Source: Heterodontus francisci (Eukaryota). From it: a DNA stretch of 64,000 bases. Below the pieces are notes generated by a model. That model ran no database searches. It had not been told where the DNA came from and saw only the letters and a program-made list of their open reading frames with translations. This document shows positions 16,435-64,000 of the stretch, in pieces (within the stretch, counting starts at the first letter, position 1; every line of letters begins with the position of its first letter). Made by a program: the position numbers and the translations under genes. The stretch lies in contig NC_090404.1 in assembly GCF_036365525.1 (NCBI RefSeq), positions 3,534,001 through 3,598,000 on the forward strand, in the 5' to 3' direction.

Positions 16435-16504
16435 ATGCATGGCCGAGTAACTGGTGCAGTTTATGCCATTTACTATCCTATTCTTGCTGCTATCGGAGTC
16501 CCGG
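16435..16504 (+). CDS. GPR139-like GPCR paralog B, exon 1
   Basis: MHGRVTGAVYAIYYPILAAIGVP/G|GTGAGT, phase 1. Splices in frame to 21507 (GVPVNLVAIVILSR). Same structure as 40393-40459. Confidence 0.88.
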
Positions 16505-17819
16505 GTGAGTCATTGTACTAAATAATTAATTGTATTAATTACTTTTTGAAGAATTTACTACTGTCACTGACAATTAGGAAAAGTGATATATTTATTTCCA
16601 GGTGTTTGTTATGAAGTCACTTGGTCAGGGTATACTAACTTTCCATTATTTTAATATATATCTGTTTTATACAAGCAGCAATCATTGAGTCTCAGATACA
16701 TGCAACATAGTGAAGCAACTGCTTGTCAACAGCCTTGTGCACGCCTGATAATGCCCTTTGACTGATTTTAAAAAGTGTTTTGTTCACTTTAAAAAACTAT
16801 AGTTCATCGGGATAATTCTGCAGGTAGAAAAATGGAGGATATACTTCCAACAATAACATCTAAAGGTAGATTTTAACTTTTCCTGTTAATCTAAATTGGG
16901 CAATAGCGAGCAGGCAGCCCATTTGAATCTCGCTTGAATTATATTTCCATTGATTTCTGCAGATTCACTATCAGCTGTTTCACACACGCTCAAAGTCAAG
17001 ATTTGCCCATGGAAACGATTGAGGGCGCAAATGGTCTTGAGCAGTAAAGCAAACAGGTGGTGAGTTTTACACTCCGTCTCGTTCTCTATCCCTGTCCCAT
17101 AACAGAGGGAAGAAAACCGGACCGAGTGTAAAACATTCGGCCCATTCGCCCCAGCCCAGAACCAAATTCCCCCTCATGTCCCCGGATCATCAATCCAGGC
17201 CGACTGAATGACTCGTCCAGTGACATAACAACGATGCTACTGTTCCCTTTAGGTTCATTCTCATTATACGCTTTTATTATTTCCCATTCTGCGCTAAAAT
17301 TGACCTTTAATTTGGATTGTTCTCTGTTTTCTGGCGGAAACGATGATTGAGTTTATCATGATAGACATGAAGTTTAAACGAATTACTGACAAATTTTGTA
17401 AATTAATGTGGAGATCTGAGCAGAAGAATCACAGGTGTCGCATGTTATTTTTGTAAAGTGGCTATTAAATCTAGATACTAGTTCAATCTTCACATTTACT
17501 GAGTAAGTAAACCTAAGTTATTATGTTTATGTCATAGAATAATTATTAATTGAGTGAATCATTTCTCTATGAATTCAAGTGAACAGCTTACTTGCTGGAG
17601 AGAACCTTGCTCAGTTGCCGCTGCATGTTGCTAATGAATGGCTTTGCTGCGCTCTGTTCTGAGACAGTGGTTAATACGGGGAGCAGGATGGGAGAGAGGA
17701 AATGTTGTTAGTTTGTTCAACATATTACAAAACCCCGATGGTCAACCGAGGTGAGTCGGGTTCAACAGGAAAATCTCTGAGGCTGAGTAGAGGGAGATTA
17801 GAATTCCACATGGATCTGA

Positions 17820-18245
17820 GATGGGAATCATGTTTTGTTGTGGGGTCAGAAGCATCGTGGTTATCTTACTGGACTAATGATCCAGAAACATGAGTTCAAA
17901 TCCCACAACAGCAGCTGGGGAATTATAATTTTATTAATTAATGAATCCAGAATAAAATGTTACTCTCAGTAATGGTGAACATGCAACTACTGGGTTGTCA
18001 TAAAAATCTACTCGGTGCACTCACATCCTTTAAAGAAGGAAATCTGCCCTCCTCACCTGGTCTAGTCTATATGTGACTCCAGACGCTCAGCAACGTGGTT
18101 GACTCTTCACCGCCATCTGAAATGACCTAGCAAGCCAACCAGTTAAGAAGGTGGCTGAACGCCACCCTGTCAAGGACAATTAGGGATAAACAATATATGC
18201 TGACTTGCCCAGCTGAGCCCACACACCGTGAATGAATAATTAAAA
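17820..18245 (+). mobile_element. tRNA-derived SINE-like repeat
   Basis: B-box-like gagttcaaatccc; core ggaaatctgcc...ggtct also at about 1330-1400. Confidence 0.55.
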
Positions 18246-19339
18246 AGGACTTGAAGTGGAAAACATCAGGAATGTGGGAGGATTAGGAGTATGTGTACAT
18301 TCGGGAAGCTGGAAGATAACTTGAAACGGCCATTATATAAACGTTTGCCACTTGGACTTGCCCACTTGAACAAAACATGGTTTTGTAAAGATGTTTTTAA
18401 AGCATCCAGGTGAAAACATTAGCGGCCATGCATGTTTATATAAACAATGATCAACTTTGATGTTTGTGTCATGTCAATATGATATGTAGCTGTAAATGAG
18501 TAGTGATAACGTTTTAGTGATGGACGAAGTTTACAGATAAACCAATAAGCAGCAAGAAATTGGCATCCAAATTACATATTTGTAACTTATTCAGTGTGAC
18601 GGAAAATCTTGAGCAAACTGTGACACGGGAAGTGTGATGAATGGGAAATTCACATGGAACATAGGGACACGACATTGGGGAGATATAAAATCAGGATACA
18701 CACTGGCACATCTTTTTGATGCCGTGGACATCTCCAGACTGGCTAAATGAGACTGAAGCTTCAAAACGTGATGTCTCTTCATTGCAGTCACAAGCAACCA
18801 GTCAGCAAGCTCTAAACTTTCGTCCGCCAAACGTCAGAATGGGCCGCAAAGTTAAGACTAAATGTCAGGGATAAAATTGGTCTTTCGCTACAGTGCAGAG
18901 TTATAGAGATTCCACAGCAAATTATAAAGTTTAAGTTATGTCTGATTTGTTACTTTACCCATTGTGTGCTACCTCAAAGACCAATTTCAGCGTCAATATT
19001 TGGTCTGGACTCTCGAGAGGGATTGAATTTGGCTTTTGCGTGATGAGGGGCAACATGCAGGGCTAGCACCAAGAATATTAAGTTCCTTTAATCCAGATTT
19101 GAATGCTAAAGGCTGTCTATCGACTGAAGCAAGGCGTGCTCCAGGCCTCGAATTGTATGCGCGGCCCTTCATTGATTTGAACAGGACCATAAAGTCATTG
19201 TTACCTTTTTGAGGCCTGTTAATGTTGGGTGGTCTCAGTGAAAATTTACCCCATGTTTATTACATTAATCCAAAGTATATAGGCTTGGACGCCAGCGATA
19301 TACCAACTTGTTGGTTTTATTATTAACAGTGCAACTTAC

Positions 19340-20560
19340 AAATATGTCATACACCTGCATGTTTGATGAAATAATAGTCAAGGTTGATGAAGACAATGCA
19401 GTGTTTATTGTCTACATGGATTTTAAGAAAGCATTTGATAAGGTGTCATATAAAAGGCTGCTTAACAAAGTTTAAGCTCATGGGATAGGAAGCTCAGTGT
19501 ACAGCAGGATAAAAATGGCTTAAAGACAGAAAACAGTGAGTCATATTAAATGGCTGTTTTTTTTCCGACTGGAGGATGGTTCCCCGAGGGTCAGTGCTGG
19601 GAACACTGCTTTTTTGCTGTACATAAATGACTCGGTTCTTGGAATACAGAGCTTCAAAGTTTTCCAAGATCCGGATTTGGAGGTTTTGAAAACAGTGAGG
19701 ATGATCTGAACCGACTGAAACAAGAAATAGATAGGCGAGCAGAATGGGCAGACAAGTGGCAGATGGAATTTAATAACGACAAGTGTGAGGTGATGCCTTT
19801 TGGCAGAAGGAATCGGAAGAGGCAATCTATACTTAATGGCACAGTTCTAAAGCGTGAGCAGGGACAGAGGGACATGGGGGTGCATGTGCATCGATCTTTG
19901 AAGGTGACAGGATATATTGAGAGAATGATTGGCAAAGCATGTGGTATTTTTAGGCTTCATAAATATAGACATTAAGTACAAAAGCAGGGGTGTTATGCTG
20001 AAACTTCATAAAGCTCTGGTTAGGCCCCAACTGGAGTATTGCTACCTGTTCAGGTTACCACACTTTAGGAAGGATGTGAAGGTCCTTGGGAGGCTGCAAA
20101 GGAGATTTACCATAATAGTTCCAGGGATGGGGGATTTTATTTATAGGGTTAGATTGCAAAAGCTGGGGTTGTTACCCTTAGAGCAAAGGAGACAGAAGAG
20201 AGATTCAATAGAGATGCACGAGATTATGACAGGTTTAGATAAGTTATACAAGGGAAAACTGTTCCCATTAACTAATGGTAGAAGGACTCGGGACACAGAT
20301 TGAAGGTTTTGGACAAAAGTACCAGGGAGAATATGAGGAAGAACTTCTTTACACAGCGGGTGGTAATGATCTGTAACTCGCTACCATAAGGGTAGTGGAA
20401 GCAGAGACAGTCAACTTCAAAATAAATCGGACGGGTGCTTGTAAGAAATAAACGTGCAGGGCTGTGGAGACCGAGCTGGGTATGGAACTGACTGGATGGC
20501 TCTGTGGAGAGCCAGCATGGACGCGATGGCTCGAATTGCCTCCTTCGCAGCCGTAGCTGA
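19340..20560 (+). mobile_element. Decayed CR1 LINE
   Basis: VYMDFKKAFDKV, MEFNNDKCEVM, LVRPQLEYC motifs. Confidence 0.85.
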
Positions 20561-21506
20561 TTTCATGACTCGATGACTATTAGCGCACACATCGGAGTAT
20601 GAGAACAATGAATCAAACTAGGATGTTCTCAACACGGAGTACCAAGGAATTACTGATTTATCTATCTAGGTGGAAGATGTGAGGTGGCATACTGAGATAT
20701 TTGTCATGTGTTCATTATGTGGTCATGTGCTACTACAGTGGCAAATGGCAATGTGGCATCACATGCACTCCATTCTCACTGGGATGTGATTTCTGTTTAT
20801 GTGGAAGATCAGACAATGTTGCATGGTTATAAACATCACACCTCAACAAGAGGAAACAGGTTAGCGATATTTCTTACACAAACCATTTGATGCTTCTTAA
20901 ATTGCATTAGTCGGACAGCTCCTGCCTACTCAACATTACCCTGTGGAATCCCAATGAGTCAACCTAAACCGCTGTATTAGCATCTATCACAGTATACATT
21001 TTCGTATCACAAATATATTAATGCTGACTACTCTATTGTTAAGCAATTTCCTGATTTATGATACAACATAAAAAGTTGGCAGCTTAATATCACAAGTAAT
21101 GTCGAGACCTTCATTTGCTTGGGCCCTAAACCCTAGAATTTCCTTCCTAAACCTTACTACTTCTCTTTCCCTGTCTCCTCCTTTACTACGCTCCTTAAAA
21201 ACCGATCTCTCTGACCAACTGTTTGGTGATCTGCCCCAATATCTCCTTATGTGGCTCAGTCTCAAATTATAGCACTCCTATGAGACCCTTGCGGTACTTA
21301 ATTACGTTAAAGGGGCTGTGTTAATACTAGTTGTTGGAATTGTGGTTGTTGGGACACGGAAAATACTGGAAACCCACTAATAATTGTTTTGGTTTCCTTC
21401 CATAAATAATGAAATGTCAAAGATGTCACAGAATCCTGTCACACTGACGTGTCTGCTGCGAATTTGTTTAATAACTTCCCAATTTTATTTTTTTTCTTCT
21501 TCTCAG

Positions 21507-21964
21507 TTAACTTAGTGGCGATTGTGATCCTGTCCCGAAGAAGGTGCGGTCTCTCCGGATGTATCACTCTGTATCTGGTGTCCATGGCGGTGACGGATCT
21601 CCTGGTCGTTATCACTGCAGTGATATTCAATCGGATTACAGGCATTTATTTTCCAGTTAGTTTTATGTCCCTGACTCCGTCCTGTACTCTCAGTACCGTG
21701 ATAATCTACGCAGCCACGGAGAGCTCTGTCTGGTTAACCGTCGCTTTCACCTTCGACCGATTTATAGCCATTTGCTGCCAGAAGCTGAAAACAACCTATT
21801 GCACCGAGAAAACGGCGTCAGTGGTTGTAGGAACGGTCGGTTTTTTGAGCTGTTTAAAAAGCGTTCCCTGGTATTTTATGTACGAACCACTCTACCTAAT
21901 TAAAAATGTGCCGTGGTTTTGTAATGTAAAATCCAGCTTCTATAATTCACTCGCATGGACAGCC
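21507..21964 (+). pseudogene. GPR139-like paralog B, exon 2, 5' part (TM1-TM4/ECL2), interrupted by CR1
   Basis: Acceptor ttcttcttctcag|; YLVSMAVTDLL, VWLTVAFTFDRFIAICC, PWFC...AWTA, then CR1 sequence. Confidence 0.92.
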
Positions 21965-22813
21965 GACTTCACCTGCTGGAAGTGCATCCGTCTCCAGCTC
22001 CTATCAGACCGTGTTAGGGAATTGGAGCTGGAGCTGGATGAACTGAGGATCATTCGGGAAGCTGAGGGGTTGATAGATAGAAGCTACACGGAGGTCGTTA
22101 CTCCACAAATCAAAGGCAGCTGGGTAACAGTTAGAGGTGGGAAGAGGTCAGTGCAGGGATCTCCTGTGGTCGTTCCCCTCAACAACAAGTATACAGTTTT
22201 AGATACTGTTGGGGGGGACGGCCTATCGGGGGCAGGCTGCAGTGACCGGGCCTCTGGCACGGGGTCCTGCACTGTGGCTCAGAAGGGAAGGAGGGAGAAT
22301 GGGAGAGCACTAGTCATCGGGGACTCGATGGTGAGGAGTACGGACAGGCGGTTCTGTGGGCGCAGGCGAGACGCACGGATGGTTTGTTGCCTCCCTGGTG
22401 CCAGGGTCCGTGATGTTTGTGATCGCGTCTTCAGGATCCTTAAAGGGGAGGGGGAGCAGCCAGAGGTCGTGGTGCACATTGGCACCAACGACGTAGGAAG
22501 GAAGGGTGGCACAGATGTTAGAAGTGAGTTTAGGGAGTTAGGCTGGAAGCTGAAAGCTCGGACGGACAGAGTTGTTATCTCTGGTTTGTTGCCGGCGCCA
22601 CGTGATAGTGAGGCTAGGAATAGGGAGAGAGCACAGCTGAACATGTGGCTGCAGGAATGGTGTAGGAGGGAGGGCTTCCAGTTCTTGGATAATTGGACTG
22701 CATTCTGGGGAAGATGGGACCTGTTCAAACAGGACGGGCTGCATCTGAACCAGAGGGGCACCAATATCCTGGGAGGGAGGTTTGCTAGTACTGTTCGGGA
22801 GGGTTTAAACTAG
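21965..22813 (+). CDS. CR1 ORF1 (partial CxxC, leucine zipper, SGNH esterase), in frame with upstream GPCR exon
   Basis: TCWKC, LELELDELR, and SGNH blocks VIGDS / HIGTND / DGLH. Confidence 0.9.
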   Translation, partial: DFTCWKCIRLQLLSDRVRELELELDELRIIREAEGLIDRSYTEVVTPQIKGSWVTVRGGKRSVQGSPVVVPLNNKYTVLDTVGGDGLSGAGCSDRASGTGSCTVAQKGRRENGRALVIGDSMVRSTDRRFCGRRRDARMVCCLPGARVRDVCDRVFRILKGEGEQPEVVVHIGTNDVGRKGGTDVRSEFRELGWKLKARTDRVVISGLLPAPRDSEARNRERAQLNMWLQEWCRREGFQFLDNWTAFWGRWDLFKQDGLHLNQRGTNILGGRFASTVREGLN

Positions 22814-25704
22814 TTTGGGAGGGGGATGGGAACCGGACTTGTAATCCAGGGACCAGTGGGTCCACTCAGAAAGACAAAGAGTGTAGTGAGGTATTGGGGA
22901 AGGTAGCACTGTCGCAGAGGACAGATGGGCACGGAGAAGGGTTAAAGTGCGTATACTTCAACGCAAGAAGCATCAGGAATAAGGTGAGTGAATTGAAGGC
23001 GTGGATGGGCACTTGGGACTACGATGTTGTGGCCATCACTGAAACGTGGATAGGTGAGGGGGAGGAATGGTTTTTGGAGGTACCTGGTTATAGATGTTTT
23101 CATAAGATTAGGAATGGTGGTAAAAGAGGTGGGGGGGTGGCATTGTTAGTTAGAAATAGTGTAACAACTGCTGAAAGAATTTTCGAGGAGGATCTGCCGA
23201 CTGAGGCACTGTGGGTTGAGGTCAGGAACAGGAAAGGAGCAGTCACCTTGATGGGAGTTTTCTATAGGCCCCCCAATAGCAGCAGGGAGGTGGAAGAGCA
23301 GATTGGGAAACAGATTTTGGAAAGGAGCAGAAGTCACAGGGTAGTAATTATGGGGGATTTCAACTTCCCAAATATTGATTGGCAACTCTTTAGATCGAAT
23401 AGTTTGGATGGGGTAGTGTTTGTGCAGTATGTCCAGGAAGCTTTTCTGACTCAGTATGTAGACTGCCCGACCAGAGGGGAGGCAATATTGGATTTGGTAC
23501 TAGGTAATGAACCAGGGCAAGTGATAGAGCTGTTGGTGGGCGAGCACTTTGGAGATAGTGATCACAATTCTGTAGCATTCACTGTGGTAATGGAGAGGGA
23601 TAGGTATGTGCAACAGGGCAAGGTTTACAATTGGGGGAAGGGTAGATATGATGCTGTCAGGCAGGAACTGAGGAGCATAAGTTGGGAGCATATGCTGGCA
23701 GGGAAGGGCACGGTCGAAATGTGGAACTTTTTCAAGGAGCAGATAGTAGGGGCCATTGATAAGCATGTCCCTGTCAGACAGGGAAGGGATGGTCATGTGA
23801 GGGAACCGTGGTTGACAAGAGAGGTTGAGAGTCTTGTTAGGAAGAAGAAGGATGCGTATATAAAGTTGAGGAAAAAGGGCACAGGCATAGCTCTGGAGGG
23901 ATACAAGATGGCCAGGAAGGATCTGAAGAAAGGGATTAGGAGAGCTAAGAGAGGGCATGAAAAATGCTTGGCGGGTAGGATAAAAGAAAACCCCAAGGCC
24001 TTTTATGCGTATGTCAGAAATATGAGGATGACTAGGGGGACCATAGGTCCGGTCAAGGACAATAGCGGGAGACTGTGTGTTGAGCCGGAAGAGATAAGTG
24101 AGGTTTTGAATGAGTACTTCTCTTCGGTATTTACGAATGAGAAGGGGTGTATTACTGAAGAGGACGGTGTGAAACAGACTGGTAAGCTCGAGGAAGTGCT
24201 CGTTAGGAGGGAAGATGTGTTGGGGTTTTTGAATAACTTGAAGATAGACAAGTCTCCCGGGCCTGACGGGGTATATCCAAGGATGTTATGGGAAGCAAGG
24301 GATGAAATTGCAGAGCCGCTGGCAATGATCTTTTCATCTTCTCTGCTGACGGGGGTGGTACCAGGTGATTGGAGGGTGGCAAATGTTGTGCCCCTGTTCA
24401 AGAAAGGGAATAGGAACAACCCTGGGAATTACAGGCCAGTTAGTCTTACTTCGGTGGTAGGCAAGTTGATGGAAAAGGTGCTGAGGGATAGGATTTCTGA
24501 GCATCTGGAAAGACACTGCTTGATTCGGGACAGTCAGCACGGTTTTGTGAGGGGTAGGTCTTGCCTCACAAGCCTGATTGAATTCTTTGAGCAGGTGACC
24601 AAGCAAGTGGATGAGGGTAAACCAGTGGATGTGGTGTACATGGATTTTAGTAAGGCATTTGATAAGGTCCCCCATGGTAGACTTATGGAGAAAGTCAGGA
24701 GGCATGGGATAGTGGGGAATGTGGCCAGTTGGATTAAGAATTGGCTAACTGATAGAAGGCAGAGAGTGGTCTTAGATGGTAAATACTCAGCCTGGAGCCC
24801 AGTTACCAGTGGCGTGCCGCAGGGATCAGTTCTGGGTCCTCTCCTGTTTGTGATTTTTATTAACGACTTGGATGAGGAAGTCGAAGGGTGGGTCAGTAAA
24901 TTTGCAGATGATACAAAGGTTGGTGGAGTTGTGGATACCGAGGAGGGCTATTGTCGTCTGCAAAGGGACTTGGATAGGTTGCAGTGCTGGGCTGAAAAGT
25001 GGCAGATGGAGTTTAACCCTGAAAAGTGTGAGGTCGTCCATTTTGGAAGGACAAACATGAATGCAAAATACTGGGTTAACGGTAGGGTTCTTGGGCATGT
25101 GGAGGAGCAGAGAGACCTTGGGGTCTATGTGCATAGATCATTGAAAGTTGCAACTCAAGTGGATAGGGCTGTGAAGAAGGCATATGGGGTGTTAGCGTTC
25201 ATTAGCAGAGGGATTGAATTTAAGAGCCGTGAGGTGATGATGCAGCTGTACAGGACCTTGGTAAGGCCTCATTTGGAGTACTGTGTGCAGTTCTGGTCGC
25301 CTCATTTTAGGAAGGATGTGGAAGCCTTGGAGAGGGTGCAGAGGAGATTTACCAGGATGTTGCCTGGAATGGAGAATAAGTCTTACGAGGAAAGGCTGAA
25401 CATTCTAGGCCTCTTCTCATTAGAAAGGAGAAGGATGAGGGGTGACATGATAGAGGTTTATAAGATGATCAGGGGAATAGATAGGGTAGACAGTCAGAAA
25501 CTTTTTCCCCGGGTGGAGCAAAGCATTACAAGGGGTCATAAATTTAAGGTGAAGGGTGGGAGATATAAGGGGGATGTCAGGGGAAGGTTCTTTACCCAGA
25601 GAGTGGTCGAGGCATGGAATGCCTTGCCCGGGGAAGTTGTTGAGTCAGAAACTTTAGGGACTTTCAAAAGGCTTTTGGATAGGTATATGGATAAAGGAGA
25701 ATGA
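22801..25704 (+). CDS. CR1 ORF2: APE endonuclease plus reverse transcriptase
   Basis: YFNARS, ITETW, MGDFN, SDH (EN); [27 protein letters not shown] (RT). Frame open from 22789; the track start at 22894 is TTG and the first ATG is at 23005. Confidence 0.95.
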   Translation, partial: GFKLVWEGDGNRTCNPGTSGSTQKDKECSEVLGKVALSQRTDGHGEGLKCVYFNARSIRNKVSELKAWMGTWDYDVVAITETWIGEGEEWFLEVPGYRCFHKIRNGGKRGGGVALLVRNSVTTAERIFEEDLPTEALWVEVRNRKGAVTLMGVFYRPPNSSREVEEQIGKQILERSRSHRVVIMGDFNFPNIDWQLFRSNSLDGVVFVQYVQEAFLTQYVDCPTRGEAILDLVLGNEPGQVIELLVGEHFGDSDHNSVAFTVVMERDRYVQQGKVYNWGKGRYDAVRQELRSISWEHMLAGKGTVEMWNFFKEQIVGAIDKHVPVRQGRDGHVREPWLTREVESLVRKKKDAYIKLRKKGTGIALEGYKMARKDLKKGIRRAKRGHEKCLAGRIKENPKAFYAYVRNMRMTRGTIGPVKDNSGRLCVEPEEISEVLNEYFSSVFTNEKGCITEEDGVKQTGKLEEVLVRREDVLGFLNNLKIDKSPGPDGVYPRMLWEARDEIAEPLAMIFSSSLLTGVVPGDWRVANVVPLFKKGNRNNPGNYRPVSLTSVVGKLMEKVLRDRISEHLERHCLIRDSQHGFVRGRSCLTSLIEFFEQVTKQVDEGKPVDVVYMDFSKAFDKVPHGRLMEKVRRHGIVGNVASWIKNWLTDRRQRVVLDGKYSAWSPVTSGVPQGSVLGPLLFVIFINDLDEEVEGWVSKFADDTKVGGVVDTEEGYCRLQRDLDRLQCWAEKWQMEFNPEKCEVVHFGRTNMNAKYWVNGRVLGHVEEQRDLGVYVHRSLKVATQVDRAVKKAYGVLAFISRGIEFKSREVMMQLYRTLVRPHLEYCVQFWSPHFRKDVEALERVQRRFTRMLPGMENKSYEERLNILGLFSLERRRMRGDMIEVYKMIRGIDRVDSQKLFPRVEQSITRGHKFKVKGGRYKGDVRGRFFTQRVVEAWNALPGEVVESETLGTFKRLLDRYMDKGE

Positions 25705-25812
25705 TGGGGTATAGATTAAATTGTCCTTGACAGAGGACAAAGGATCGGCACAACATTGTGGGCCGAAGGGCCTGTTCTGTGCTGTATGTTCTATGTTCTA
25801 TGTTCTATGTTC

Positions 25813-26262
25813 TATGATTGGTTTGCACGTGTTTTAAATCCAGGTCTCCCATTCCTCCTGATTCTGTTGCTCAATGCTCTGACCGTCAGACACATCCTAG
25901 CGGCCAGTAGAGGTCGCAGGAGACTCCGGGCTCTCAGCAATGGAGTTGCTCAGAGTGACCCAGAGTTGGAGAATAGGAGAAAGTCCATTGTTTTACTCTT
26001 CGCCATCTCGGGGAGCTTCGTCCTGTTGTGGATGACGTATGTTGTAAATTTCCTGTATGTAAAAATCACAAAAGAATCTTATTTCGGAGGTTCCAATTTC
26101 AATGACTCAAAGTTCATTCTCCAAGAGAGTGGAAACATGCTTCAGCTCTTGAGCTGTTGCACCAACACGTGTATTTATGCAGTGACCCAGAGAAAATTCA
26201 GAGAGGAGTTGATGAATGCGGCAAAATATCTTGGGAATCGAATTGTTAAATTCGTAAACTAG
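25813..26262 (+). pseudogene. GPR139-like paralog B, exon 2, 3' part (TM5-TM7)
   Basis: YDWFARVLNPGLPFLLILLLNALTVRHIL...SDPELENRRKSIVLL...CCTNTCIY...*. The reconstituted gene is 978 nt, the same length as paralog C. Confidence 0.92.
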
Positions 26263-32070: not shown

Positions 32071-32279
32071 GTGAGCTGGTGTCAGTGAGGAACACTGAGT
32101 GTGAGCGGATGGGCTAATCCCAAGAATCGTTTTATTTCGTTACTTCGATAAGAAGAAGCTTCTGATTTTGATCTGAAGCGGGAGTTTGGCTCCTTGTTAA
32201 TTCTCGTGAATATAAAACCCTGTTTGTAACCCGACCTCCCTGTACAATTCTGTCATTCGCCATTTCATCTGATCCGATA

Positions 32280-32614
32280 ATGTTCCGGATTTACAGCGTT
32301 TCCCTGCTGTTTTACACTCTGATCGGCACGGAGGTGACCGGTGAAGATGAGGTGATGCAGCCGCCTCGGCGGGAGGTTGTTACTGAAGCGGGAATCGTCT
32401 CCATGAACTGCAGCATTACCGTTCCGTTCAGCGTCCTGCACTGGTACAGACAGCTCCCGAATCAGCCCCTCCAGCATCTGGTGATGGCGACACGCGGGGC
32501 CGAGCAACACGGGAGGATCACTGCTTCAATCCGGGGAGGCAACAAACTCAGTGCCCTGACTGTGAGAGACGCCCGAGTGACAGACACCGCCACCTATCTC
32601 TGTGCAATCAGGGC
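32280..32614 (+). CDS. TCR alpha/delta-type V gene segment, apparently intact (V3); leader and V in one exon
   Basis: MFRIYSVSLLFYTLIGTEVTG|EDEVMQ...MNCS...LHWYRQLP...LTVRDARVTDTATYLCAIR. Both Cys and the Trp present, TATAAAA at 32211, canonical RSS. Confidence 0.92.
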
Positions 32615-32653
32615 CACAGTGTAACAAACAGATGGAGAGTCCGTACAGAAACT
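32615..32653 (+). other. Canonical 23-bp-spacer RSS of V3
   Basis: CACAGTG - 23 nt - ACAGAAACT. Confidence 0.95.
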
Positions 32654-44530: not shown

Positions 44531-45632
44531 ACAAATCCCATTTTCTCTCGGATTCCCTGTGCTGGTAATGGAGGATGCCTACACCAGTGCCACTGGGAGT
44601 GGAGAATGTGCGCGCTGGTACTTGGGTCTGGGTCCCCTATTGGCACACGGCTGACTGGCAGGTGTAGAACCATGGGTCCACCCACCTTTCTCCAGCAAAT
44701 TTCCGGACCATTGGAGCCCTCTCCGCTTGACTCGATTTGTTTTGGTCCATTCCACTTTGTTATTCTAAATTAAGCATTTAAACGTCTTCTGGAACCTGCT
44801 TTAATTTTCCCATTCGCCTTCCACCATCATCCCTTTCGTCATTGACTCATTTCTGCTCTCCACCAGATCACAAACATCCTTTGCTCTTTCCTCCCCACTA
44901 AATCCCACTCTTTTCTGACTCTATCATTGCTTTATAACTGTTAATTTCTACTATCTTCCTGTTTTAATGAAAGATTATCAAGCTGAAGCGTTAACTTTGT
45001 TTGTCTGTCCACATATGCTGTCTGATTTTCCTTTTTTTCTCAAGTATTTAGACTGGGATAGTAAGAGGGCTGGGTAACACAGGTGGTGGTTTGGGATGGA
45101 GGGCGCGGTGGGGGCGCAGTGCCTTGGTGGGGTCGGACTTCCAACAGCCAGTTCCCACCCCCACCCCCCACCACTGTGAAGTTTTTGTTTTCTGGGGTGC
45201 AGCTTTTGTCCTTGACAGGTTCTCTGACAAAACGTCAGCTTGACTGACAGGCTTCTCTTCCATTTACCAGGCGTGGACTCCGGAATAGGCTGCATGACCA
45301 GATAGGTCCCATCCTGGACCCCGGAGGATCTGTCCGATCCTGGGTAATCTGTTCACGGACATGGGGCAGGGTCCAACCCCCACCGGCAGGGGTCTTTGCT
45401 TGAGGGGCTTCCGATCGGGGGCTGTGCTTGGGAGCCCAGGCGCAAACCGTCTTGTTAATCCTGGCCTACAAGCAGTGTTGCAGAGGCAAGTTCCATCTCT
45501 TTTAAAAACGTTCCCCAGGACTGAGAAACCCGGTTTTTGGTGATAAAATCCAGCCGCCTCCTGCCTCGACTCAGATACGGAGAATATTTGATCAGTAACT
45601 TCCAGTCTTTTTTTTCCTTCTCTCTCTTACAG

Positions 45633-46543
45633 TTAATTTAGTGGCGATTATGATCCTGTCCCGTGGAAAGTGCGGACTCTCCACCTGCACCACTCGCTAC
45701 CTGGTGTCCATGGCAATAGCGGATCTACTGGTCATTATCACTGAGGTCATACTGTCCCAGAACAGTTACTATTATTTCCCAGGATCTTTCCTAGACATCA
45801 CTCCTGTGTGTCGATTTATCCACATCCTGATTAATGCAGCCACAGACTGTTCTGTCTGGTTCACCGTCACTTTCTCCTTTGATCGATTTGTCACCATTTG
45901 TTGTCACAAGCTGAAAACAAAATATTGCACTGGGAAATCTGCAGCGGTGGTTCTGGCAACAACCTGCATTCTGCTCTGTTTAAAAAACATCCCTTACTAC
46001 TTTACATATGAATCTGGAGAGATAATCGACAATGTACCATGGTTCTGTTATGATAAGCCTAGCTATTATACTGAGCCCGGATGGGTGGGAATGGATTGGT
46101 TTGACAAAGTTTTAACTCCATTGCTTCCATTCCCTTTAATTCTGTTGCTCAATGCTCTGACAGTCAGATACATTTTAGTAGCCAGTCAAGTCCGTAAGGG
46201 ACTGAGGGGTCAGAGCAAGGGAGAAAATCGCAGTGACCCAGAGATGGAGAGCAGAAGGAAGTCTGCTATTTTACTCTTCACCATTTCGGGCAGCTTCATA
46301 CTTCTGTGGTTGTCATATGTTATAGATTTTTTACATTACAAAGTTGCAGGAACAGATCCCAACAATTACAATGCTTCTTTATATATCTTTGGAGAAGTTG
46401 GATTTATGCTGCGGACCTTAAATTGCTGCACGAACACATTTATTTATGGGGTGACTCAGTCCAAGTTCAGAGAGCAGTGCAAGAGCATAGTGAAATATCC
46501 GGTTACATCAATTATTCAGTTGATCAAGAAACAAAACAACTGA
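45633..46543 (+). CDS. GPR139-like GPCR paralog C, exon 2 (intact; 325 aa spliced)
   Basis: Acceptor ctctcttacag|; seven hydrophobic segments; YLVSMAIADLL, FSFDRFVTIC, PWFC, LLPF, CCTNTFIY; TGA at 46541-43. Confidence 0.93.
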
Positions 46544-46880: not shown

Positions 46881-47552
46881 TGTGGGCCTCTATTCGCCTG
46901 GTTCCATTTTAATCTAAATAACCGTAACAAGAGGATCACCATCAATGGCTTCTCTTCCCATTCCCGCCTCTTTCCTTACCCCCTCCTATTTTTCATCTAC
47001 ATGCTGTTCCTCATCTACATCAGCTGATACTGCAATGTCAGCTTTCACTTGTATACTGATAACACCCAGCTCTACCTCACCACCACCTTTATTCACCCTT
47101 CCACTTTGTCTAAATTATCAGGCAATCTTCAGACATCCAGGACTGAGTGAGCAGAAATTTCCCCCAACTAAATATTGGGAAGACAAAAGCCATTCTCGTC
47201 GGCCCCTACCAAAAGTTCCGTTCCCGAGCTACCCACTCCTGCCCTCTCCATGCTAACTGTCTGAGACTGAACCAAACAGCTTGCAATCTTGGTATCACAT
47301 TTGACCCCTACATGAACTTCTGACCACATGTCGGTGCTGTCACTAAAACCTCTTTCCATCACTGTAATCTCGCCCGACTTTGTTCCTGCCTCAGTTCAAT
47401 TCTGTTGAACCCTACATTCATGCATTTGTTACTTCCGGACATGATTATTCCAAGGTACTCATTGACGACATTCCTCAATCCATGATCAATAAGCTTAAAG
47501 TCATCCAAAACTTTGCTGAACCGTCCTTACTGGTTATGATTCCTTTTCATCT
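46881..47552 (+). mobile_element. Decayed L2-like remnant (continues at about 50000-50480)
   Basis: Collinear with 300-1270; split by a CR1 insertion. Confidence 0.7.
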
Positions 47553-49999
47553 GTAGTTGTTATGGGGGACTTTAACTTTCCTAATATCGAATGGAAATAC
47601 TACAGTTCGAGTACTTTAGATGGGTCAATTTTTGTCCAGTGTGTGCAGGAGGGTTTTCTGACACAGTATGTAGACAGGCCAACCAGGGGCGATGCCACAT
47701 TGGATTTGGTACTGGGTAATGAACCCGGCCAGGTGTTAGATTTACATGTAGGTGAGCACTTTGGTGATAGTGATCACAATTCGGTTAGGTTTACCTTCGC
47801 GATGGGCAGGGACAGGTATATACCACAGGGCAAGAATTATAACTGGGGGAAAGGAAATTATGATGCGATTAGGCAAGATTTAGGATGCGTAGGATGGGGA
47901 AGGAAACTGCAGGGGATGGGAACAATCGAAATGTGGAGATTATTCAAGGAGCAGCTACTGCGTGTCCTTGATAAGTATGTACCTGTGAGGCAGGGAGGAA
48001 GTTGTCGTGCGAGGGAGCCGTGGTTTACTAAAGAAGTTGAAGCGCTTGTCAAGAGGAAGAAGAAGGCTTATGTTAGGATGAGACGTGAAGGCTCAGTTAG
48101 GGCGCTTGAGAGCTACAAGCTAGCCAGGAAGGATCTAAAGGGAGAGCTAAGAAGAGCAAGGAGAGGACACGAGAAGTCATTGGTGGATCGGATCAGGGAA
48201 AACCCTAAGGCTTTCTATAGGTATATCAGGAATAAAAGAATGACTAGAGTTAGATTAGGGCCAATCAAGGATAGTAGTGGGAAGTTGTGTGTGGAATCAG
48301 AGGAGATAGGGGAAGTGTTAAATGAATATTTTGCGTCAGTATTTACAGTAGAGAAAGAAAATGTTGTTGAGAATACTGAGATTCAGGCTACGAGGCTAGA
48401 TGGGATTGAGGTTCACAAGGAGGAGGTGTTATCAATTTTGGAAAGTGTGAAAATAGATAAGTCCCCTGGGCCAGATGGGATTTATCCTAGGATTCTCTGG
48501 GAAGCCAGGGAGGAGATTGCAGAGCCTTTGTCCTTGATCTTTATGTCGTCATTGTCGACAGGAATAGTGTCGGAAGACTGGAGGATAGCAAATGTTGTCC
48601 CCTTGTTCAAGAAGGGGAGTAGAGACAGCCCTGGTAATTATAGACCTGTGAGCCTTACTTCGGTTGTGGGTAAAATGTTGGTAAAGGTTATAAGAGACAG
48701 GATTTATAATCATCTTGAAAAGAATAAGTTCATTAGAGATAGTCAGCACGGTTTTGTGACGGGTAGGTCGTGCCTCACAAACCTTATTGAGTTTTTCGAG
48801 AAGGGGACCAAACAGGTGGATGAGGGTAAAGCAGTGGATGTGGTGTATATGGATTTTAGTGAGGCGTTTGATAAGGTTCTCCACGGTAGGCTATTGCAGG
48901 AAATACGGAAGTATGGGGTTGAAGGTGATTTAGAGCTTTGGATCAGAAATTGGCTAGCTGAAAGAAGACAGAGGGTGGTGGTTGATGGCAAATGTTCATC
49001 CTGGAGTTTAGTTACTAGTGGTGTACTGCAAGGATCTGTTTTGGGGCCACTGCTGTTTGTCATTTTTATAAATGACCTGGATGAGGGTGTGGAAGGGTGG
49101 GTTAGTAAATTTGCGGATGACACTAAGGTCGGTGGAGTTGTGGATAGTGCCGAAGGATGTTGTAGGGTACAGAGGGACATAGATAGGCTGCAGAGCTGGC
49201 CTGAGAGATGGCAAATGGAGATTAATGCGGAAAAGTGCAAGGTGATTCACTTTGGAAGGAATAACAGGAATGCAGAGTACTGGGCTAATGGGAAGATTCT
49301 TGGTAGTGTAGATGAACAGAGAGATCTTGGTGTCCAGGTGCATAAATCCCTGAAGGTTGCTACCCAGGCTAATAGGGCTGTTAAGAAGGCATATGGTGTG
49401 TTAGCTTTTATTAGTAGGGGGATCGAGTTTCGGAGCCACGAGGTCATGCTGCAGCTGTACAAAACTCTGGTGAGGCCGCACCTGGAGTATTGCGTGCAGT
49501 TTTGGTCACCACATTATAGGAAGGATGTGGAAGCTATGGAAAGGGTGCAGAGGAGATTTACTAGGATGTTGCCTGGTATGGAGGGAAGGTCTTACGAGGA
49601 AAGGCTGAGGGACTTGAGGTTGTTTTCGTTGGAGAGAAGGAGGAGGAGAGGTGACTTAATAGAGACATATAAGATAATCAGAGGGTTAGATAGGGTGGAT
49701 AGTGAGCGTCTTTTTCCTCGGATGGTGATGGCAAACACGAGGGGACATAGCTTTAAGTTGAGGGGTGATAGATATAGGACAGATGTCAGAGGTAGTTTCT
49801 TTTCTCAGAGAGTAGTCGGGGCGTGGAACGCCCTGCCTGCAGCAGTAGTAGACTCGCCAACTTTAAGGGCATTTAAGTGGTCATTGGATAGACATATGGA
49901 TGAAAATGGAATAGTGTAGGTCAGATGGTTTCACAGGTCGACGCAACATCGAGGGCCGAAGGGCCTGTACTGCGCTGTAATGTTCTAATTCTAATAATA
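47553..49999 (+). mobile_element. Young 5'-truncated CR1 with a 785-aa open ORF2 fragment (47562-49919)
   Basis: MGDFN, SDH, QHGF, FADD motifs; flanked by atct at 47549-52 and 50000-03 (possible 4-bp TSD). Confidence 0.95.
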
Positions 50000-59345: not shown

Positions 59346-59896
59346 ATGAGGTCGGCGATTTCTCTCAGTCTGTTGCTGATTTTCCTATCCCGTGAGTTGT
59401 TGTTATTGTCCGAGTCTCTCGCTGTCACTGTTGCAATGTTAATCTCTCTCTGGAATGTTACAGAGTCAGGAATCATTTCACCAGGATTAATCCTCTGGGT
59501 TTTTGATATTTTTTACAGGTGTCCATTCGGATGTCGTGTTGACTCAGCCAGAGGCAGAAACTAGGAGTCCTGGGTGCTCCCTGAGACTGACCTGTAAAAC
59601 CAGCGGGTTCAATTTTGGCAGCCACACCATGCACTGGGTCCGACAGGTTCCCGGGCAAGGGCTGGAGTGGTTGGTTTACTACTATATTTCATCCAATATT
59701 CATTACGCCCCAGGGGTTAAGGATCGATTTACTGCGTCCAAAGACACTTTAAACAACATCTTCGCTTTGGACATGAAGAACCTGAAGACTGAAGACAACG
59801 CCATCTATTTCTGTGCAAGAGACGCCGGTACAGCAGTGCGTACAAGCATTTCTATGGACTACTGGGGACAAGGGACCATGGTGACAGTGACTGCAG
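59346..59896 (+). CDS. IgM-type heavy-chain leader (59346-59391) plus joined VH-D-JH exon (59519-59896)
   Basis: [16 protein letters not shown]|GTGAGT...ttacag|[13 protein letters not shown]...LTCKTSGF...[15 protein letters not shown]...RFTASKD...[32 protein letters not shown]|GTAAAA. In frame, with no RSS between V and J. Confidence 0.95.
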
Positions 59897-62004
59897 GTAA
59901 AAAAAAATGCATTTATTCAGTACCTGTTTTATTTGCGTCTTTATTAATACTTTTGATTATTTTAATAATACATGTGGTCATCAAAATGTGTTTTCCGCGG
60001 TTCTGTATTGAGATTTGTTGCAATGTTTCATGTGGTTCTGCTGCAAAGATATTGAAGAATTCAGCTGTTTTTCCACAAACGGTGTTGTTGAGGGATTAAG
60101 CCCCACATTGATGTGATTTGGTGTTCGCTGATGAGATTGTGTGTCTGGGCTACTTTATATAACTAACGTCTGTTAAACTGTTGGCTTTCTACAATATTTA
60201 ATCTCGGTGGCAGTCAATTGCTGTAGGCTTTCTGAACTAATGCAAACAATAATTGTTTAAATGTGTTTGAAATTCGATTTTAGGCAGACAGTTTCAGTGG
60301 TCAAAAATAACCTTACGATATGTTAAGGTATTTTTATTTGTGATAAATAAATTGTCATCTGTCAATCTAATGCTCACAAATGCTTATATATAATATATGA
60401 AATATTACCCTAACTGAGAACTACATAAATGATAATTTTTCAGGTGTGTTCAGTTTTACTTAATGTAATTAATATAATGTTGTATATAATATTTGTCAAT
60501 ATTACCAAAGTATGCTATAGTCTCAGTATTAATTTTAAGCATGTTCTCGATTGACATCAATGCTGCCATTATTTTTTTTTTAACTGGTTATTTTAATAGT
60601 TAATTCGTTCAGATACAGGCTGGTTCGGTGGATTCTTCATTCAGATTTTTGGGACTTCGTTGAAAGGGTTTGTGGAATTAAGCTGCTTCTGCATGAAACT
60701 GAGAAGGGATTCAGTACCTTAGAGGTGTGATTTGGTGTTTATCTGCTGGGGAGAGTTTGTGGCCTGGTTGCTTACAATAAGTAAAATATGTGAAACTGTT
60801 TGGCGTATCTGCATCGTTTAATCTCGGTGACATCGAGCGGCCGCAGGTTTTCTGACTTAGTGCAAGCATATGTGTTTAAAACTATTTGAAAGGTGATTGT
60901 AGGCAGAACACTGGCAGGATTCAAAAATGGAAAGAAAGGTTTAAAGATGCTTAAATGCATTTTTTTATTTAATAGATAATTGTAGATTAACTATTAAGCC
61001 ATGGTTTATGATGCTCATTCAGTACATGAGATGTTACTACAATTACAAACTGCCATAATTGACAAGTTTGCAGATTTGAAAATAAAGTTAATATAATTCA
61101 AACAATTATAACGCGTCATTGTCTCGCAATAGTCACCAAATATGCTTTAATTTTAATACTAATTCAGTAATCCTTAATCACCTTTCACAATTCCTCTGTG
61201 CCTTGTGCACAATTGCTGTGACGGGAACATTTTATAGGCTGGAGGCAATTTTAATTGAGTCTGAAATTAGTTCAATAAGAATATATTGATTCAATTGCTG
61301 GGTTCAATTTGATGGTCGGTTTTGAATTAATTGCTGTATCCCTGATTAAAATAGATCAATGGCAGTTTGTAGTTACTTACAGCTTAAATAGGAGCTGCAA
61401 ATTGCAGTTTGTCAATGCAGTATATCTGCCGGTTATTACTTTCACTGCGTGCAACCGAAACCATATTAAACCTTCATTGTCATTTGTTGCTGGATAGCGA
61501 GATAATAAGTGCAATTTGATCCATTTATTTAAGAAACTTGTATCTGTGAGAAATGTGAAAGTTTGAAGAGACGCCTCAGCAATGAGATCCGTATCCCAGT
61601 CTGTGAAAACCAGAAAAAAAACGATTGAGAGACACGACAAACAGTCTGTAGTTCCTTTGTAACCATTAATGCACCTACCCTGGGATTGTTTCACTGCGTG
61701 ATGTAGAAGGAAATTTACTCTATATTTTCTGTAACGGTCCTGGGACTGTTTGATGGGACTATTTGGTGGAAGAAATTACTCTGTATCTAAAAGGGGTTGA
61801 AACTCCCCTGGGCATATATGATAGGACAGGATAGAGGAAAAATTATTTCATATCAAATCAGTGTTGTACATGACTCGGAGTGTTTGACAGTTCAGTGTCG
61901 AGCTGGCTTTCCTCAGAATACAACACTTGTTATGTTCCACTTAACAGTGCACGACAGCACAATGCAGAGGGAGATTTACTCTTCACCTTAACTGTCTTTT
62001 TTTT

Positions 62005-64000
62005 TAGAACATTACAGCGCAGTACAGGCCCTTCGGCCCTCGATGTTGCGCCGACCTGTGAAACCATCTGACCTACACTATTCCATTTTCATCCATGTGT
62101 CTATCCAATGTCCACTTAAATGCCCTTAAAGTTGGCGAATCTACTACTGCTGCAGGCAGGGCGTTCCACGCCCTTACTACTCTCTGAGTAAAGAAACTAC
62201 CTCTCACATCTGTCCGATATCTATCACCCCTCAACTTGAAGCTATGTCCCCTCGTGTTTGCCATCACCATCCGAGGAAAAAGACGCTCACTATCCACCCT
62301 ATCTAACCCTCTGATTATCTTATATGTCTCTATTAAGTCACCTCTCCTCCTCCTTCTCTCCAACGAAAACAACCTCAAGTCCCTCAGCCTTTCCTCGTAA
62401 GACCTTCCCTCCATACCAGGCAACATCCTAGTAAATCTCCTCTGCACCCTTTCCATAGCTTCCACATCCTTCCTATAATGCGGTGACCAGAACTGCACGC
62501 AATACTCCAGGTGCGGTCTCACCAGAGTTTTGTACAGCTGCAGCATGACCTCGTGGCTCCGAAACTCGACCCCCCTACTAATAAAAGCTAACACACCATA
62601 TGCCTTCTTAACAGCCCTATTAACCTGGTTAGCAACCTTCAGGGATTTATGCACCTGGACACCAAGATCTCTCTGTTCATCTACACTACCAAGAATCTTC
62701 CCATTAGCCCAGTACTCTGCATTCCTGTTACTCCTTCCAAAGTGAATCACCTCACACTTTTCCGCATTAAACTCCATTTGCCATCTCTCAGCCCAGCTCT
62801 GCAGCCTATCTATGTCTCTCTGTACCCTACAACATCCTTCGGCACTATCCACAACTCCACCGACCTTAGTGTCATCTGCAAATTTACTAACCTACCCTTC
62901 TACACCCTCATCCAGGTCATTTATAAAAATGACAAACAGCAGTGGCCCCAAAACAGATCCTTGCGGTACACCACTAGTAACTAAACTCCAGGATGAACAT
63001 TTGCCATCAACCACCACCCTCTGTCTTCTTTCAGCTAGCCAATTTCTGATCCAAAGCTCTAAATCACCTTCAACCCCATACTTCCGTATTTTCTGCAATA
63101 GCCTACCGTGGAGAACCTTATCAAACGCCTTACTGAAATCCATATACACCACATCCACTGCTTTACCCTCATCCACCTGTTTGGTCACCTTCTCGAAAAA
63201 CTCAATAAGGTTTGTGAGGCACGACCTACCCGTCACAAAACCGTGCTGACTATCTCGAATGTACTTATTCTTTTCAAGATGATTATAAATCCTGTCTCTT
63301 ATAACCTTTTCCAACATTTTACCCACAACCGAAGTAAGGCTCACAGGTCTATAATTACCAGGGCTGTCTCTACTCCCCTTCTTGAACAAGGGGACAACAT
63401 TTGCAATCCTCCAGTCTTCCGGCACTATTCCTGTCGACAATGACGACATAAAGATCAAGGACAAAGGCTCTGCAATCTCCTCCCTAGCTTCCCAGAGAAT
63501 CCTAGGATAAATCCCATCTGGCCCAGGGGACTTATCTATTTTCACACTTTCCAAAATTGCTAACACCTCCTCCTTGTGAACCTCAATCCCATCTAGCCTC
63601 GTGGCCTGAATCTCAGTATTCTCAACAACATTTTCTTTCTCTACTGTAAATACTGACGCAAAATATTCATTTAACACTTCCCCTATCTCCTCTGATTCCA
63701 CACACAACTTCCCACGACTATCCTTGATTGGCCCTAATCTAACTCCAGTCATTCTTTTATTCCTGATATACCTATAGAAAGCCTTAGGGTTTTCCCTGAT
63801 CCGATCCACCAATGACTTCTCGTGTCCTCTCCTTGCTCTTCTTAGCTCTCCCTTTAGATCCTTCCTGGCTAGCTTGTAGCTCTCAAGCGCCCTAACTGAG
63901 CCTTCACGTCTCATCCTAACATCAGCCTTCTTCTTCCTCTTGACAAGCGCTTCAACTTCTTTAGTAAACCACGGCTCCCTCGCTCGACAACTTCCTCCCT
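62005..64000 (-). mobile_element. Young CR1 (runs off the window), premature stop in RT
   Basis: Near-identical to 47553-49999; TGG to TAG at 62892-62894 splits ORF2. Confidence 0.95.

Follow-up and report, generated by a model that had tools for sequence, protein, structure and literature searches.

A GPR139-like receptor gene split by a CR1 element

The window (the whole stretch of 64,000 nt of Heterodontus francisci DNA that was analysed) contains a gene for a GPR139-like G-protein coupled receptor (GPCR) whose second exon is interrupted by a CR1 LINE. Exon 1 of the gene (16435..16504, + strand) comprises 70 nt from the ATG to a GT donor, and is followed by a GT..AG intron (16505..21506, +) that was delimited by its splice signals, the acceptor AG lying immediately before 21507; the intron also houses an older, decayed CR1 fragment at ~19340-20560. 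Exon 2 is present in two parts. The 5' part (21507..21964, +) encodes the rest of TM1 through ECL2 (aa 24-176), and the 3' part (25813..26262, +), which is intact and separated from the 5' half, encodes TM5-TM7 and the C-terminus. When the two receptor halves were joined exactly, the product matched the 325-aa RefSeq protein XP_067869826.1 of H. francisci letter for letter (100% identity to the joined query), bearing out a preliminary description of this DNA in which both halves were said to be free of other lesions. Exon 1 and its donor also occur in that RefSeq entry and in an intact paralog (L002) located 68 kb upstream. The paralog is uninterrupted at the position of the CR1 insertion, and is 92.9% identical to the split gene in nucleotides over the 5' half and identical in 302 of 325 amino acids. 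Alignment to GPR139 structures places the break point at the end of ECL2 and start of TM5, with helix limits judged from the alignment.

The empty (uninterrupted) allele of the receptor has a seven-helix 7tm_1 domain by Pfam and PDB alignment, and is identical to XP_067869826.1, a member, with XP_067869824.1, of an elasmobranch "probable G-protein coupled receptor 139" family. The family is large, with 1,260 relatives at E<=1e-20, many of them from H. francisci. The only PDB matches of the receptor at E<=1e-10 were GPR139 chimeras (human GPR139 structure, 7VUG). The likeness to the human receptor is distant (E 1e-12), and the shark "GPR139" name is an automatic label. A direct precedent for shark GPR139-like expansions was not found among the papers listed for this subject. 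Another exon 2 of GPR139-like type occupies window positions 45599-46543 (+) and stays open over 314 aa; a search of the window with the N-termini of 120 relatives returned no exon 1 for it.

Structure of the CR1 insert and its junctions

The insert (21965..25812, +) is a 5'-truncated CR1 LINE of 3,848 bp. It is joined bluntly, with no target base duplicated or lost, as read by comparison with the uninterrupted L002 paralog. It begins with an ORF1 remnant (21965..22813, +) of 282 of 306 aa, recognized by Pfam, a PDB match and comparison with long copies, that contains only the second CxxC, a coiled-coil-like stretch, a linker and an SGNH esterase with its GDS (22319-22327, +), HxGTND (22475-22492, +) and DGLH (22733-22744, +) motifs. 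ORF2 (22789..25704, +) lies in the -1 frame relative to ORF1 and is open for 971 codons, with an APE endonuclease (Pfam PF03372 and PF14529) and a reverse transcriptase (RT; PF00078). The 3' UTR (25705..25812, +) carries ATTAAA at 25715 and ends, without poly(A), in short tandem repeats of 7 nt, (TATGTTC)n. In long copies, ORF1 is 306 aa and opens with a CxxC...CxxC motif. The copy here is without the 5' UTR and the 24 N-terminal ORF1 codons, among them the ATG and those for the first CxxC of a C4 zinc finger, and has neither the promoter (5' UTR) of its own nor the whole ORF1 that would be expected of an autonomous LINE.

By its domains and its tail, the element is assigned to esterase-type CR1, and relatives of its ORF1 are found among shark, coelacanth, frog, turtle and squamate proteins. 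It shares with esterase-type vertebrate CR1 LINEs an SGNH ORF1, an APE-RT ORF2, a tandem-repeat tail and 5' truncation (PMC13343379; 4C1B, PMC3905857; general CR1 anatomy, PMC2734521). What sets it apart is its truncation, which has removed the 5' UTR, the ATG and one half of the zinc finger, and its in-frame fusion to the preceding part of a host membrane protein. In the relevant passages of one of these sources, chondrichthyan L2s are described as lacking ORF1, and CR1-group elements as making up 22-34% of shark and ray genomes (PMC13343379).

At the 5' junction, the target and the CR1 template share a 3-nt microhomology, GCC (21962..21964, +), and GCC stands immediately upstream of the position equivalent to 21965 in 30/30 copies. 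At the 3' junction, the target and the tail repeat share a 4-nt microhomology, TATG (25813..25816, +), which is the likely priming site. Target-primed reverse transcription would start at TATG, and the GCC microhomology would close the 5' end of the truncated insert; LINE integration is reported to yield truncated copies with blunt joins and with 5' microhomology (PMC4245944). Between them, these junctions and the polymorphic CR1 insertions described for the coelacanth match the horn shark insert in a young subfamily, empty and filled sites and 5' truncation with microhomology. However, according to the passages that describe them, the coelacanth insertions are intronic or intergenic and mostly have short target duplications (PMC4255032), whereas the horn shark insert is blunt and lies in a coding exon.

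In long copies L050-L054, the 5' UTR is an array of near-identical monomers of ~217 bp (from steps in shared 5' length), which lies ~240-1750 bp upstream of the junction-equivalent position and has at least five monomers in L052 and more in L050 and L051. These tandem monomers recall those of mouse L1. Such arrays are described, in the portion of the source consulted, in elements without ORF1 (PMC13343379); in L050-L054 they occur alongside ORF1.

Age, copy number and polymorphism of the insertion

The first 300 bp of the insert drew 490 candidate hits, of which 40 were scored, and all 40 were 100% identical. Each of 12/12 longer copies had 99.6-99.9% identity, and both ORFs were open in the stretch shared with the window copy. 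Counts of exact patterns gave 5,491 copies with the 3' site, 1,978 with the pre-esterase site and at least 925 with the ORF1 start context. At most 1,053 copies are truncated within the ORF1 part in a way that leaves the esterase whole, this being an upper bound since variants also break the pattern. If such copies number 300-1,053 and coding DNA amounts to 35-50 Mb (an assumed figure), the subfamily would be expected to hit coding sequence in sense and in frame 0.3-1.5 times per genome, before selection. Since chance expects this many, one in-frame event in a many-paralog family needs no special cause. The preliminary description had likewise cautioned that an in-frame junction, with its chance of 1 in 3 per sense hit, does not imply selection, and the estimate of ~0.3-1.5 events per genome agrees with that.

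Two contigs from DNA sample S1, of 224 bp (X1) and 221 bp (X2), have 21963 joined to 25812, skipping 3,848 bases, and otherwise have no differing letter. Since the paralog L002 differs inside the joined stretch, these contigs do not derive from it, and since the empty allele is present in S1, the species is not fixed for the insertion. The empty allele is known from this one sample, which is perhaps the assembled animal itself. Read depth at the join was 11.6 versus 12.8-12.9 in the flanks for X1 and 9.7 versus 10.9-11 for X2, values that fit both a heterozygote and an empty homozygote. Two runs of other samples, X8 (targeted capture) and X9 (RAD-seq), had almost no reads on the unique receptor halves flanking the insert and yield no genotype. 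The empty allele that had been proposed for genotyping is thus shown to exist by the exact empty join from S1, and the event had rightly been called recent, as judged by this allele and by the 99.6-99.9% identity of 12/12 long copies. A domesticated fusion gene would be expected to be fixed and shared with relatives; this insertion is unfixed, and no 7tm_1-GDSL protein stood among the relatives listed. The insert shows that CR1 is mobile now in H. francisci and able to strike coding exons of redundant receptor families.

The in-frame receptor-ORF1 fusion

Splicing of exon 1 to 21507 gives 1,377 nt, i.e., 458 codons plus a stop (22811-22813), comprising 176 aa of GPCR and 282 aa of ORF1, and Pfam detects both 7tm_1 and Lipase_GDSL_2 within this frame. 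The computed splice join thus reproduces the single 458-codon frame of the preliminary description. As to its CR1 share, 282 aa are indeed fused in frame, but they are a partial ORF1, full copies having 306 aa. The GDS/GTND/DGLH motifs are intact, as was claimed, and all catalytic and both transposon-specific esterase residues, as named for ZfL2-1 (PMC3905857, in part), are kept. The only PDB match of the ORF1 esterase is 4C1B (4c1b_A, ZfL2-1 ORF1p; E 3e-26).

Since the fusion holds TM1-4 only, it cannot form a whole receptor. Alignment to GPR139 structures predicts that the esterase would lie on the lumenal or outer side, the topology that had been proposed earlier. Of the four helices, TM1 and TM2 alone exceed a hydropathy of 1.6, and no hydrophobic stop-transfer segment was found in the ORF1 part (maximum 0.54) or, above 1.5, in ORF2. 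The ORF1 part contributes nine cysteines and half of a zinc finger. No RNA record was listed for 21000-21990, a result that is neutral as to transcription. If transcribed, the filled allele would yield the first four receptor helices with ORF1 projecting into the ER lumen; as is general for truncated GPCRs, this product would probably be retained and degraded. Carrying nine lumenal cysteines and half a zinc finger, it is more likely to be degraded. As for selection on the transposon part, the copy is very young, and its private changes number two, a missense change in ORF1 and a synonymous one in ORF2.

Expression of CR1 ORF2

ORF2 had been described as intact. It is open and retains endonuclease and RT, but its first AUG is at 23005, inside the endonuclease domain. 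At the end of ORF1, a slippery heptamer, T TTA AAC, stands in the ORF1 frame and runs directly into the ORF1 stop (22804..22813, +; T TTA AAC TAG, i.e., U_UUA_AAC in phase), and ORF2 is in the -1 frame, which makes this a candidate -1 frameshift site. U_UUA_AAC is given as one of the most shift-prone heptamers (PMC5009743, in part). To assess conservation of the site, the first 30 CR1 copies with an ORF1 on contig C1 were taken, whether or not they had the heptamer; 7 of them belong to one repeated unit and are almost identical and evenly spaced. TTTAAAC stands after the esterase in 28/30 copies, and in 26 it is in the ORF1 frame, across 48-99% ORF1 amino acid identity. Of the 28 copies with the heptamer, 22 have the endonuclease in the -1 frame, and the position of the first Met varies. 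Among ORF1 homologues, the protein ends in Leu-Asn in 33/37 and 28/35 of those that could be scored (85 and 41 examined, respectively), and Leu-Asn ends span sharks, rays, coelacanth, frogs, turtles and squamates.

An in-phase X_XXY_YYZ heptamer, a downstream ORF in the -1 frame and conservation are among the marks of a programmed frameshift, and by sequence all three are present. Therefore, ORF2 is probably made by -1 frameshifting as an ORF1-ORF2 fusion. The arrangement resembles the U_UUA_AAC frameshift of IBV-type coronaviruses (PMC5009743), with the same heptamer and phase, an ORF1/ORF2 overlap and a -1 ORF2; CR1 is not mentioned in the parts of that review that were consulted. It differs from the IBV-type site in that neither a conserved 3' stem-loop nor a pseudoknot was found. 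Structure scores 3' of the slip site gave z of -1.6 to +1.7 (10 sequences, 2 lengths), and neither a conserved hairpin nor a long-range pairing was found there. Instead, a conserved G-rich tract follows the slip site (window 22804-22840 and L136-L165), and a two-tier G-quadruplex is predicted in 4/6 sequences tested. A published description of CR1 frameshifting was not found in the largely open-access literature, and a printed mention may exist. Probable frameshifting of vertebrate CR1 ORF2 bears on the open question of LINE translation, and it would be a trait of the family, not one peculiar to this locus.

In the fusion, the chain after four helices would face the lumen. Since TM4 precedes a lumenal chain, ORF1 and ORF2 have no clear stop-transfer segment and ORF2 would be produced by frameshifting, ORF2 would enter the ER lumen, away from its own RNA and from the nucleus. 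The host start codon, which was earlier taken as a rescue of the truncated LINE, would then disable the copy in cis. Such a copy would be unable to move itself, and its RNA would in principle be mobile in trans; no trace of movement in trans was found in the assembly searched.

Interpretation of the locus

Considered together, these results make it highly probable that the locus carries a recent, 5'-truncated CR1 insertion that is unfixed and forms a null allele, with an in-frame junction due to chance, in a redundant receptor family. The frame match would be luck, and loss of the receptor would be buffered by the 93%-identical intact paralog and by dozens of others. As a null allele, the insertion matters little.

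It is very unlikely, in our estimation, that the filled allele is transcribed into a chimeric gene segregating in a wild shark, with a stable four-helix anchor, an active external esterase and a frameshifted, membrane-tethered ORF1-ORF2 polyprotein. If this were true, the single-copy, uniquely tagged transcript would make the CR1 frameshift directly measurable.

We regard as highly unlikely that the allele makes a stable membrane-anchored ecto-esterase with a biological effect, in which TM1-4 would serve as the anchor and the CR1 SGNH domain would lie outside. Such a protein could draw on an open frame of 458 codons that uses the host start and splice sites and on an intact catalytic triad and oxyanion residues, and the related ZfL2-1 esterase works in vitro as an isolated domain and binds phospholipids, so that a fusion that folded could be an enzyme; however, the same account, in the parts consulted, gives its turnover as low (PMC3905857). 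Furthermore, the insertion is unfixed and within the chance expectation given above, the half zinc finger and nine cysteines would meet an oxidising lumen, and only two of the four helices are strongly hydrophobic by the cut applied. Nor did a protein with both a 7tm_1 and a GDSL domain occur among 75 longer esterase relatives or among the top 120 of 1,260 longer GPCR relatives, both being weak evidence. Were the fusion expressed and active, it would offer a rare snapshot of a transposon-host chimeric gene before fixation.

The preliminary description had also proposed that the host promoter makes the truncated LINE a source element, its chimeric RNA being copied in cis or in trans and sometimes carrying GPCR 5' sequence along. 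This we consider extremely unlikely, and a direct precedent for a truncated LINE driven by a host promoter was not found among the papers listed for this subject. ORF2 is open, the 3' tail is intact with its ATTAAA, and related elements can apparently transpose without esterase activity (PMC13343379, citing Kajikawa 2012), all of which would suit a source. Against this, ORF2 lacks an AUG of its own before the endonuclease and would probably end up in the lumen, and the at least 925 copies that keep their own start make autonomous elements plentiful. A 24-mer across the 5' junction, allowing at most 1 mismatch, had a single match in the 6.0-Gb assembly, namely the window itself, and none of 19/19 candidates retrieved with a 200-bp junction query was a second chimera. 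The genome search for GPCR-CR1 chimeric copies that had been suggested thus returned only the window junction.

Relative to the common form, the window copy has four variant sites. Two variants are its own, one at 22644 (+), where a CpG-to-TpG change replaces Thr with Met in the esterase, and one at 24006 (+), a CpG-to-TpG change that is synonymous in ORF2. A third, 25525A, was dropped as a private marker, since 55 further copies share it; their backgrounds are several, and one sub-lineage is among the carriers. Of these carriers, 36 were extended and 19 were not. In the extended carriers, 24006T was found in 0 of the 27 that cover the site (all have C); a further 8 are too short, and one copy (L105) begins exactly at 24006, with T. 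Elsewhere in the assembly, 25525A accompanies neither 22644T, at its 4 further sites, nor 24006T, at its 17. Six copies share 22914G and 25525A, with 1-4 differences, and two of these (L102 and L130) run on upstream of the junction position as normal LINE sequence; therefore, the window copy is a sibling from a longer source. Seven copies (L066, L070, L077, L103, L117, L124 and L132) are 100% identical to the 3' part of the window copy and too short to be separated from its siblings, so they cannot be assigned, and a few daughters could conceivably be among them or be represented by L105. Both variants of the window copy's own are CpG changes, compared with 1 of 30 differences in 9 other copies, which fits methylation after insertion, the numbers being small. 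Judged by these comparisons within one assembly, the window copy is a daughter and shows no sign of having been a source, and the proposed role as a source of retroposed GPCR 5' sequence is not borne out. The preliminary description had itself named polymorphism and a want of daughter copies as observations that would count against the fusion and source readings, and both were made, within one assembly and one sample.

It is likewise extremely improbable that the insertion is spliced out, so that a near-normal receptor is still made and the insertion is nearly harmless. RefSeq does model an uninterrupted 325-aa receptor over the insertion (XP_067869826.1), and 18 frame-keeping GT/GC-AG pairs lie near the junctions. 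However, these pairs have weak donors and would alter ECL2 or TM5, and an exact skip of the 3,848 bp would have the ends CG..TT (or GA..TC), which are no splice signal. Since the skipped ends are not splice signals, it is more probable that homology, or reads of the empty allele, carried the RefSeq model across the insert, and the gene annotation hides the CR1 disruption of the receptor gene.

Least probable of all, and exceedingly so, is an assembly error by which a repeat was pasted into the gene: the filled junction is missing, and the empty junction present, among the pieces listed for four DNA runs (12,515 further pieces lie outside that listing), but the junctions show the microhomology pattern of truncated LINE inserts (PMC4245944), the target is complete to the base, and variants private to the copy stand on a real sub-lineage background.

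Other features of the window and of related sequences

An IgH-like gene lies at window positions 59347-59897 (+), with leader, V, a D-like stretch and J in one joined frame that ends at a GT donor; no recombination signal was found inside this frame. Germline-joined VDJ genes are a known feature of sharks, and this gene resembles one. A V-set segment like TCR alpha/delta V lies at 32172-32652 (+) and is closed by a recombination signal with a spacer of the 23-nt type, at 32615. The TCR-like V-set segment, the IgH-like gene and the GPR139-like genes all fall within the same 64,000-nt window. Two nearly identical copies of another young CR1 family, with a long open ORF2, are located at 47520-49919 (-) and 62073-64000 (-).

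Among the ORF1 relatives, a CR1 ORF1 protein that is 90% identical (P0121) is labelled "Pseudomonas aeruginosa SGNH/GDSL hydrolase" and comes from a 4-kb contig; this is probably host-DNA contamination of a bacterial record. Ray gene models (P0188, P0189, P0145 and P0206) fuse CR1 ORF1 to TMEM204 isoforms or put RPS24 or HAO2 names on CR1. Finally, seven near-identical older CR1 copies (L136-L142) occur at C1:70,000-185,000 with a spacing of ~18-19 kb, suggesting that a tandem segmental array lies close to the beginning of contig C1.
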